Source: Escherichia coli
GTDB taxonomy: Bacteria > Pseudomonadota > Gammaproteobacteria > Enterobacterales > Enterobacteriaceae
Assembly: GCF_030013595.1 (NCBI RefSeq)
Contig: NZ_CP122768.1
DNA: 64,000 bases
Reading direction: 5' to 3' (one strand)
Shown here: piece by piece, positions 32,724-33,088 of the stretch
How positions within the stretch are numbered: position 1 is the first letter of the stretch
Layout of the letters: every line of letters begins with the position of its first letter
The notes under the pieces: model-generated
Databases searched by the model: none
Told to the model about the DNA's origin: nothing
The model's input: the letters and a program-made list of their open reading frames with translations, nothing else
Position numbers and translations under genes: made by a program

Positions 32724-33088
32724 ACCATAGACAACATGAATATTAATGTTACTATCTGGTTGAGACTGTTGATAAAACGTAAAAAGGAATGCTCTGTTCC
32801 TGCAACTGAACAGGCGTGAAACGCTATCCAACAGGATGGATACCGTTTTGTCAGCCAGTTTTATAGATCACACTTATGAGTATGCGTGTTTCATTTACGG
32901 CCAGGAATGCTGATGATGACAACATTACTACCCGTTTTCACTAAGCCTTCCACGTTGGCGCTCAATGCTCTGCGCGCTGGTCGTATTTGCCGTTTCCTTC
33001 TTATCCCGGATGGAAGAATCCGCTGAACGTCGTTCGGCGGCAGTTGTAACACGCGTCGTTTGTTTACAGGGATTATGGCGGGTCGATT

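Follow-up and report, generated by a model that had tools for sequence, protein, structure and literature searches.

yhiY as a probable translated leader ORF of the yhiI-rbbA-yhhJ operon in Escherichia coli and related Enterobacteriaceae

A short open reading frame (ORF) precedes the yhiI-rbbA-yhhJ operon of Escherichia coli, and it raises the question of whether this ORF has a role and, if so, whether that role lies in the encoded peptide, in the RNA or in the act of translation. The window analyzed here, a 64,000-nucleotide stretch of E. coli chromosome, carries yhiJ (31101-32723), yhiI and rbbA, all on the + strand. The spacer between yhiJ and yhiI measures 365 nt (32724-33088), the same length as given in an initial annotation of this DNA, which had proposed a 39-codon ORF with an ATG-rich start behind AGGAA as a possible leader peptide or attenuator. 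That ORF is present and translates as stated. AGGA at 32903-32906 is followed by atgctgatgatg, and positions 32907-33026 translate to MLMMTTLLPVFTKPSTLALNALRAGRICRFLLIPDGRIR before a stop codon, from which 62 nt, and not the 60 bp first reported, lead to the yhiI ATG at 33089. Taken alone, the 39-codon ORF is no more than chance would yield. There are 46 mechanical ORFs of at least 20 amino acids within 3 kb, non-genic ones of 72-136 amino acids among them, and a bare ORF is unremarkable in a region so crowded with similar ones. Its reality rests on ribosome profiling, mass spectrometry, annotation and conservation of the start. The features discussed below are collected in Table 1.

Table 1. 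Features of the yhiI leader region, in window coordinates
Feature	Position	Strand	Basis or remark
Promoter-like TAGACA-N16-TACTAT, TG before the -10	32728-32755	+	Consensus scan
K-12-type E. coli-specific 115-nt 5' UTR segment	32756-32870	+	Predicted to fold on itself as a long hairpin
Ultra-conserved 5' block: P1 and P2 5' arms, yhiY SD, three ATGs, first 12 codons	32876-32950	+	Alignment
P1 5' arm, AUGCGUGUU.CA, of a long-range helix	32882-32893	+	RNAalifold in two separate clades
P2 5' arm, UACGGCCAG (32896-32904), overlapping yhiY SD AGGA (32903-32906)	32896-32906	+	RNAalifold
P3, small hairpin over the AUGs			RNAalifold
yhiY CDS, 37 aa, MMTTLLPVFTKPSTLALNALRAGRICRFLLIPDGRIR, UGA stop 33024-33026	32913-33026	+	RefSeq on identical DNA; MG1655 b4790; profiling; mass spectrometry
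C-rich, G-poor stretch within yhiY, candidate Rho loading region	32919-32979	+	C 21, G 10 of 60 nt
P2 3' arm, CUGGUCGUA	32977-32985	+	Conserved island (YUGGYC) in the variable middle of yhiY
P4 hairpin from the FLLIPDG codons	32993-33016	+	RNAalifold; nucleotides read in another frame in the C. freundii group
P5 hairpin, 9 bp, GUC loop	33020-33040	+	5' arm holds the yhiY UGA stop
RNA 3' ends, K-12 3630667 (33024) and 3630645 (33046, Rho-dependent)	33024-33046	+	Published Term-seq (PMC7815308)
P1 3' arm, UG.AACACGCGU	33045-33056	+	33-44 nt before yhiI ATG; RNAalifold
yhiI translation-initiation region, GGGAUUAUGGCGGGUCGAUUAUG, invariant	33069-33091	+	SD likely GGCGGG 33077-33082; ATG 33089
yhiI (33089-34156) and rbbA (34153-36888), yhhJ next	33089-36888	+	yhiI stop and rbbA start overlap; genes downstream of the leader

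The ORF is the annotated E. coli small-protein gene yhiY, whose product has been detected experimentally. RefSeq annotation of a strain with 100% identical DNA places yhiY at the second ATG, giving 37 amino acids, and the MG1655 counterpart is b4790 (YP_010051203.1, 3630665-3630778, minus strand). Its neighbors are yhiJ (or yhiM) on one side and yhiI on the other, and it is read in the same direction as yhiI. By megablast, the spacer is found in 5412 of 5426 complete E. coli genomes, in single copy and always on the chromosome; among the matches listed out of these 5412, the label 'yhiY: protein YhiY' stands under the match in 29 of 30 E. coli genomes. The encoded peptide is 100% identical to WP_001315057.1 of strain MEI003, and the window allele differs from the commonest allele solely at residue 14 (T instead of P).

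Translation of yhiY has been documented by ribosome profiling and by mass spectrometry. Ribosome profiling with Onc112 and retapamulin identified the gene as ORF9 and maps its start to the second AUG, where initiation is strong in vivo (Weaver et al. 2019, bioRxiv 10.1101/511675). The frame first noticed begins two codons earlier, at the first ATG; its ATG-rich character is upheld, but the mapped and annotated start is the second ATG at 32913. The sequence agrees with the published assignment, since AGGA directly abuts the first ATG (0 nt spacing) and stands at an ideal 6 nt from the second. A 2025 proteomics study found YhiY with three mass-spectrometry methods (top-down, DIA and PRM), put it at ~1000-3000 copies per cell and saw it intact with the top-down method, indicating a stable and fairly abundant peptide (PMC12529367). 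These data bear on the simplest alternative, that the ORF arose by chance between two genes and does nothing. ORFs of similar size are common in this region in all six frames, but the published translation data refute such a reading, and profiling, epitope and mass-spectrometry detection, curated annotation and a start region conserved across at least seven genera leave it practically no probability. The gene is already known, and the idea that it forms a leader is likewise already in print.

Several features place yhiY on the same transcript as yhiI, upstream of that gene. The promoter-like site at the beginning of the spacer fits the 5' end of a published yhiI 5'UTR fusion, whose cloning primer begins GAGACTGTTGATAAAACG at window position 32762, 7 nt past the site; transcription probably starts near this position. 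A TAGACA-N16-TAGTAT site is also present in E. coli ST131, other Escherichia and Hafnia, and visual inspection of the Klebsiella rows in the alignment shows a related TGGACA-N16-TAGTAT. Promoter, upstream ORF (uORF) start and yhiI are co-conserved across genera. Between promoter and conserved block, 4282 of 5426 E. coli genomes carry the 115-nt segment listed in Table 1. It is missing from ST131/B2 strains, E. albertii and other genera, where the -10 element lies ~25 nt before the conserved block. The possibility that this segment is a repeat element was rejected, as it occurs in one copy per genome.

Published RNA data connect this leader with Rho. In the work of Adams et al. (eLife 2021, PMC7815308), rhoR66S raised expression of a yhiI (5'UTR+ORF)-lacZ fusion more than 2-fold, and yhiY-yhiI is listed there among uncharacterized candidate regulatory uORFs that are followed by an RNA 3' end within less than 200 nt. 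With MG1655 coordinates checked, their 3' end at 3630645 falls 20 nt past the yhiY stop codon, and that at 3630667 falls on the U of the UGA itself. The former lies at -43 from yhiI and is tagged 'uORF' in the supplementary table. In LB at OD 0.4, its upstream/downstream reads are 762/101 without bicyclomycin (BCM) and 792/351 with BCM, a 7.5-fold drop that is partly relieved by the drug. The site has a Rho score of 3.34 and is classed as a 'significant Rho termination region', its intrinsic score is 2.14 against a cut-off of 3.0, and a BCM-sensitive site is also listed inside yhiI (PMC7815308).

The Term-seq reads further indicate that the majority of transcripts stop shortly past yhiY in dependence on Rho and that a stable 5' fragment ending at 33046 is abundant. 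This end lies 6 nt past the P5 hairpin. It is established that Rho-terminated RNAs are trimmed by exonucleases back to a stable stem. The 33046 end may be such a trimmed Rho product, with P5 as its stem. The C-rich stretch within yhiY could serve as a rut site, judged by its composition, and a comparable C>G window lies inside or right after the uORF in every clade. A classical terminator-type attenuator was rejected. No terminator-like site lies on the + strand between yhiY and yhiI (33027-33088); the sequence right after P5 is GGCAGUUGUAAC, and the intrinsic score in the published table stays below its cut-off. Of the original leader/attenuator proposal, the leader uORF is supported by Term-seq, by the rhoR66S effect and by the comparison described below, and the terminator-type attenuator is not. 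The T-rich leader of Hafnia was considered separately as an intrinsic attenuator, and neither scan nor fold supports a terminator there.

To compare the leader across species, yhiI loci were taken from one genome per species, and metagenome leaders were added via a pattern from the conserved block. Dereplication at 97% identity gave 35 distinct leaders, and the YhiY peptide was compared by tblastn on the fetched loci. The leader is recognizable in Escherichia, Salmonella, Citrobacter, Pseudocitrobacter, Klebsiella, Enterobacter/Raoultella and Kluyvera, and in part in Hafnia. It is not recognizable 5' of yhiI homologues in Providencia, Proteus, Morganella, Pseudomonas and more distant bacteria. 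A Shine-Dalgarno (SD) sequence followed by AUG AUG ACN ACA (MMTT) is universal in the 35 leaders, with the start reading AUGAUGAC(A/C)ACA.

Beyond this start, the uORF varies widely. Its length is 3-4 codons in the Kluyvera type, where SD and AUG AUG are kept even so, 15 codons in one variant, 37 in Escherichia, 45-46 in Citrobacter, Salmonella and Pseudocitrobacter, and 63 in an insertion variant. In Klebsiella, Enterobacter and Raoultella it reaches 78-98 codons and crosses the yhiI start out of frame. Past residue ~5-9, the peptides of different clades in this set are unrelated, and in one Escherichia sp. assembly a 1-nt insertion alters the entire C-terminal half. A C-terminal motif, F(L/P)LIP(D/E)G, stays in frame in C. 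amalonaticus, Pseudocitrobacter and Salmonella, and in the nine distinct leaders of the C. freundii group FLLIPDG shares its frame with another upstream ATG (MSMRVSF...), not with MMTT. The one universal peptide element, MMTT(L/F), is inseparable from nucleotide-level invariance, and FLLIPDG..R-UGA is conserved in one clade only. The peptide is not conserved wherever the locus is, as a conserved small-protein family would be. A universal start combined with variable length, sequence and frame argues for a leader ORF rather than a conserved protein, and the cross-genus pattern supports, at the level of sequence comparison, a cis-acting role.

This variation weighs on the alternative of a small protein that acts in trans, perhaps by partnering or modulating the YhiI-RbbA-YhhJ exporter, in which case the place of yhiY before yhiI would simply reflect co-expression. 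AcrZ, which serves AcrB, provides a model for such a partner. The copy number and intact state of the peptide would suit this role (PMC12529367), as would the in-frame motif of C. amalonaticus, Pseudocitrobacter and Salmonella, but ORFs of 3 to 98 codons with unrelated sequences occur among clades in which yhiI-rbbA is always retained. In Escherichia, YhiY is invariant in its N- and C-terminal thirds, and the last 15 codons hold 7 synonymous versus 3 non-synonymous polymorphisms, a bias that hints at peptide-level constraint; the middle of the peptide, with 6 synonymous versus 12 non-synonymous, is nearly neutral and speaks against a role in trans. So do the out-of-frame overlap with yhiI in Klebsiella and Enterobacter and the shift of the C-terminal motif to another frame in the C. 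freundii group. By inspection, YhiY has no hydrophobic stretch of membrane-helix length, and no NCBIfam model matches YhiY or the other-frame peptides. On balance, a trans-acting function appears rather unlikely.

Conservation of the leader is concentrated at the nucleotide level. From Escherichia to Klebsiella, positions ~32876-32950 hardly vary, whichever of the three codon positions is considered, and a 69-nt core (32882-32950) has zero variable sites among 19 distinct Escherichia leaders representing 77 loci. In the same leaders, variable sites number 24 over the remaining 76 nt of yhiY and 15 over the 62 nt that separate yhiY from yhiI. The final ~20 nt before the yhiI ATG are again almost invariant.

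Helices were predicted by RNAalifold on an alignment of Escherichia, Citrobacter and Salmonella leaders and, in a separate run, on ten Klebsiella/Enterobacter/Raoultella leaders. In the predicted structure, P1 closes the whole uORF domain, and P2 joins the SD sequence of the uORF to its interior. The P1 duplex is present in 24/24 enterobacterial loci, always at -45 or -43 relative to the yhiI ATG, and the segment it encloses ranges from ~50 to 190 nt among them; an inverted-repeat scan reports P1 independently. The second RNAalifold run recovers P1, P2 and P3, together with a hairpin of different sequence immediately 5' of the P1 3' arm, in the place that P5 takes in the first alignment. In the Klebsiella clade, ACUCAGC is predicted to pair with the yhiI SD (GCGAGU) in a clade-specific hairpin.

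Compensatory exchanges are seen in P1, P2, P4 and P5. The 3' arm of P1 varies solely by A to G exchange, in either direction, opposite U, plus one C-G compensation in Pseudocitrobacter, and in natural B2 E. coli alleles G-C becomes G.U in P1 and in P5. P2 is formed by UACGGCCAG and CUGGUCGUA in E. coli and by UAAGGC and GCCUUA in the Klebsiella clade, a C-G to A-U swap. The closing pair of P4 covaries (U.G / A-U / U-A), and an internal U-U becomes U.G or C-G elsewhere. P5 appears in every single-sequence fold and in the RNAalifold prediction, and it shows compensatory exchanges of G-C for A-U and of C-G for U-A. In the Escherichia/Citrobacter/Salmonella alignment, four pairs are changed on both sides, one in P1 (U-A / U.G / C-G), one in P4 and two in P5, and 97% of cells are paired, compared with 34-45% when the partners are slid, the structure having been tested on the same alignments from which it was derived.

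The randomized controls temper this picture. Covariation is thin. Because the 5' arms never vary, P1 does not stand out significantly against shuffles (93/500 and 360/500), and for pairs with double changes 167/500 shuffles are as good. Single-sequence minimum-free-energy folds lack P1, and the short leader is no stabler than its shuffles (z -0.31); the z of -2.09 for the longer leader is largely owed to the K-12-specific 115-nt hairpin. Overall, the predicted helix structure of the leader is moderately supported. A further candidate pairing, between the P4 loop TCTTATCC (32999-33006) and yhiI codons 1-3 (GGATAAGA, 33091-33098), is perfect in E. coli and uncompensated in other species, and was rejected as a conserved element.

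These features raise a second alternative, in which the structured leader RNA is itself the functional element, as a ligand-, protein- or sRNA-responsive domain or as a stability or processing domain, and translation of yhiY is incidental or an aid to unfolding. The 69-nt block does not vary at any codon position, third positions and predicted loops included, and helices are conserved in two clades. The FLLIPDG 'motif' may be read as an RNA hairpin with covariation that is kept whatever the frame, and the 5' fragment ending at 33046 is stable and abundant. Set against these points, the most universal features of the leader are those of translation initiation, SD and AUG AUG, retained even with an ORF of 3-4 codons, and initiation on the uORF is strong in vivo (bioRxiv 10.1101/511675). 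Rfam 15 gives no match at E <= 1 for window positions 31000-35000 on either strand, and there is no known ligand or partner. Pairing of the sRNA GcvB with the CA-rich start region was considered and found unconvincing (-33.3 kcal/mol versus -27.4 +/- 3.4 for shuffles, 29/500 of which are as good). We consider it unlikely that the RNA acts in this way with translation as a bystander.

The reading we favor is that yhiY is a translated uORF within the 5' leader of the yhiI-rbbA-yhhJ ABC-exporter operon, a leader that is both conserved and folded, and that yhiY probably acts in cis. Most likely, it is a regulatory leader ORF at a place where Rho cuts short transcription of the operon. Under this model, ribosome occupancy or pausing on yhiY would remodel the P1/P2/P4/P5 domain and thereby set translation of yhiI. 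The translation state of yhiI would in turn set the access of Rho to naked RNA, in the C-rich interior of the uORF and/or in the early yhiI coding region. The default state would be one of strong attenuation although yhiY is translated. Because yhiY is well translated under conditions where termination is strong, simple blocking of Rho by translation cannot be the whole story, and the ON state probably needs an abnormal translation state. Induction would accordingly depend on an altered translation state, such as the stalling known from toiL-topAI or tnaC.

In an accessibility model, masking of the uORF raises the unpaired probability of the yhiI SD from 0.02 to ~0.3 in E. coli alleles; the other clades show no unmasking of the SD, and the mean over 35 leaders is unchanged (0.37 versus 0.38). 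Literature searches turned up nothing relevant on regulators or inducers of yhiI-rbbA-yhhJ and no published test of whether yhiY translation or stalling controls yhiI. The leader interpretation, proposed in print before and strengthened here by comparative evidence, is plausible rather than proven.

Characterized leader ORFs offer useful comparisons. One is toiL-topAI, which shares with yhiY a translated uORF, a structured leader, a default OFF state despite uORF translation, and premature Rho termination tied to poor translation of the downstream gene. In toiL-topAI, RNA structure occludes the ribosome-binding site, poor translation lets Rho terminate intragenically, and antibiotic-induced stalling on the uORF relieves this (PMC12121999). 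Stalling and occlusion are demonstrated for toiL, whereas for yhiY occlusion is predicted only in E. coli alleles and, by way of another local hairpin, in leaders of the Klebsiella clade. In mdtU-mdtJI and tnaC-tnaAB, as in yhiY, the uORF lies directly 5' of a Rho-dependent 3' end, and tnaC also ends in UGA with its termination region near the stop codon. Adams et al. placed yhiY-yhiI in the same candidate class as mdtU (PMC7815308). However, the MdtU and TnaC peptides, which sense polyamines and tryptophan, have motifs conserved over many genera, while YhiY is conserved at MMTT only, plus a C-terminal motif of one clade that is not everywhere in frame. The amino-acid operon leaders trpL, hisL, thrL and leuL resemble yhiY as small leader ORFs in which alternative RNA structures respond to translation, a coupling that for yhiY is proposed. 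Unlike them, yhiY has no intrinsic terminator (hairpin plus U-tract) before yhiI and no regulatory codon run, its start containing the doublets MM, TT and LL only.

The initial annotation considered a leader here of interest in view of a ribosome association of RbbA, while calling its own evidence weak. We found no link between the leader and that proposed association. The 'ribosome-associated' label of RbbA rests on old, partly retracted work, including a 2011 PLoS One paper on RbbA-YhjD that was retracted in 2025.

More broadly, the yhiY region may represent an undescribed family of structured cis-regulatory leader RNAs in Enterobacteriaceae that gates Rho termination of an ABC-exporter operon, a proposal we put forward tentatively and hold to be possible more than probable. 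Such a family would consist of the promoter-proximal invariant block and the long-range P1 around a uORF of free length with an obligatory start, together with the SD-linked P2 and a stop-codon hairpin. The leader would then sense the translation state or a ligand. The absence of polymorphism in the 69-nt block may point to an extra partner, be it protein, sRNA or the MMTTLLPVF chain as it emerges from the ribosome.

The conserved unit at this locus, as we argue, is the act of initiation together with the folded leader and not the peptide. The comparison supplies concrete elements for experiments, namely the helices P1, P2 and P5 and the start codons. With gene and leader idea both already described, what remains of interest is how the leader is built and conserved, and the unexplained 69-nt invariant block. 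If the leader is a sensor, it would provide a handle on when E. coli switches on the poorly understood YhiI-RbbA-YhhJ exporter.

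The neighbourhood upstream of the yhiI-rbbA-yhhJ operon is variable, whereas the promoter, leader and operon are retained, as a comparison of window positions 31101-32723 with B2-type E. coli (ST131 and FDAARGOS_1266; loci L083/L085) illustrates. Neither yhiJ (DUF4049) nor its paralogue is present in these strains, which places yhiM immediately before the promoter of yhiY, the small leader ORF; their version of YhiY has the substitutions R21C and R27H. The leader also varies in length. A 115-nt segment, predicted to fold into a long hairpin of its own, occurs in 4282 of the 5426 E. 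coli genomes searched, lengthening the 5′ UTR of K-12-type strains accordingly; it is absent from B2/ST131 strains, from other Escherichia and from other genera.

Additional features of the yhiI leader region, in window coordinates
Feature	Position	Strand	Remark
Other-frame ORF, MSMRVSFTARNADDDNITTRFH	32876-32944	+	Overlaps the yhiY start
72-aa ORF, apparently mechanical	32891-33109	-	Antisense over the entire yhiY and spacer
115-nt single-copy segment	32756-32870		Between promoter/TSS and conserved leader block

The N-terminal part of the other-frame ORF is kept out to Klebsiella (MRVSFKARIADDDHI...), and in the C. freundii group this frame is open for 55-57 codons and bears the FLLIPDG end. 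No Shine-Dalgarno sequence is evident for this ORF, whose AUGs fall within the 5′ arm of P1, the predicted long-range helix. Its conservation may simply be invariance at the nucleotide level.

The predicted P4 hairpin within yhiY exhibits a further potential contact, with 8 bp of perfect complementarity between TCTTATCC (32999-33006) and codons 1-3 of yhiI, GGATAAGA (33091-33098). This pairing could add to occlusion of the ribosome-binding site in E. coli. The complementarity is restricted to E. coli-like sequences and is uncompensated elsewhere.

Several loci appear disrupted or truncated. In E. coli E423 (L084, 2400-2660), an IS1A insertion near codon 5 of yhiY has eliminated the Shine-Dalgarno sequence and start of that gene, and the annotation marks rbbA as a pseudogene whose reading frame contains a stop. 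With both lesions in the same strain, the locus looks as if it is decaying. The conserved leader block also occurs without yhiI downstream in four metagenome contigs, which may represent deletions or assembly chimeras: L134 has a Salmonella-like leader truncated just 5′ of the yhiI Shine-Dalgarno sequence, in L204 the leader is followed by REP-like repeats, and the two E. coli contigs L116 and L172 have junctions within the leader.

The name ‘ribosome-associated ATPase’ for the product of rbbA (34153-36888) is founded on earlier biochemical studies. Concerns over images led in June 2025 to the retraction of a paper from 2011 that dealt with RbbA-YhjD and the ribosome. From its sequence, the operon looks like one specifying an HlyD-type adaptor and a fused ABC transporter.
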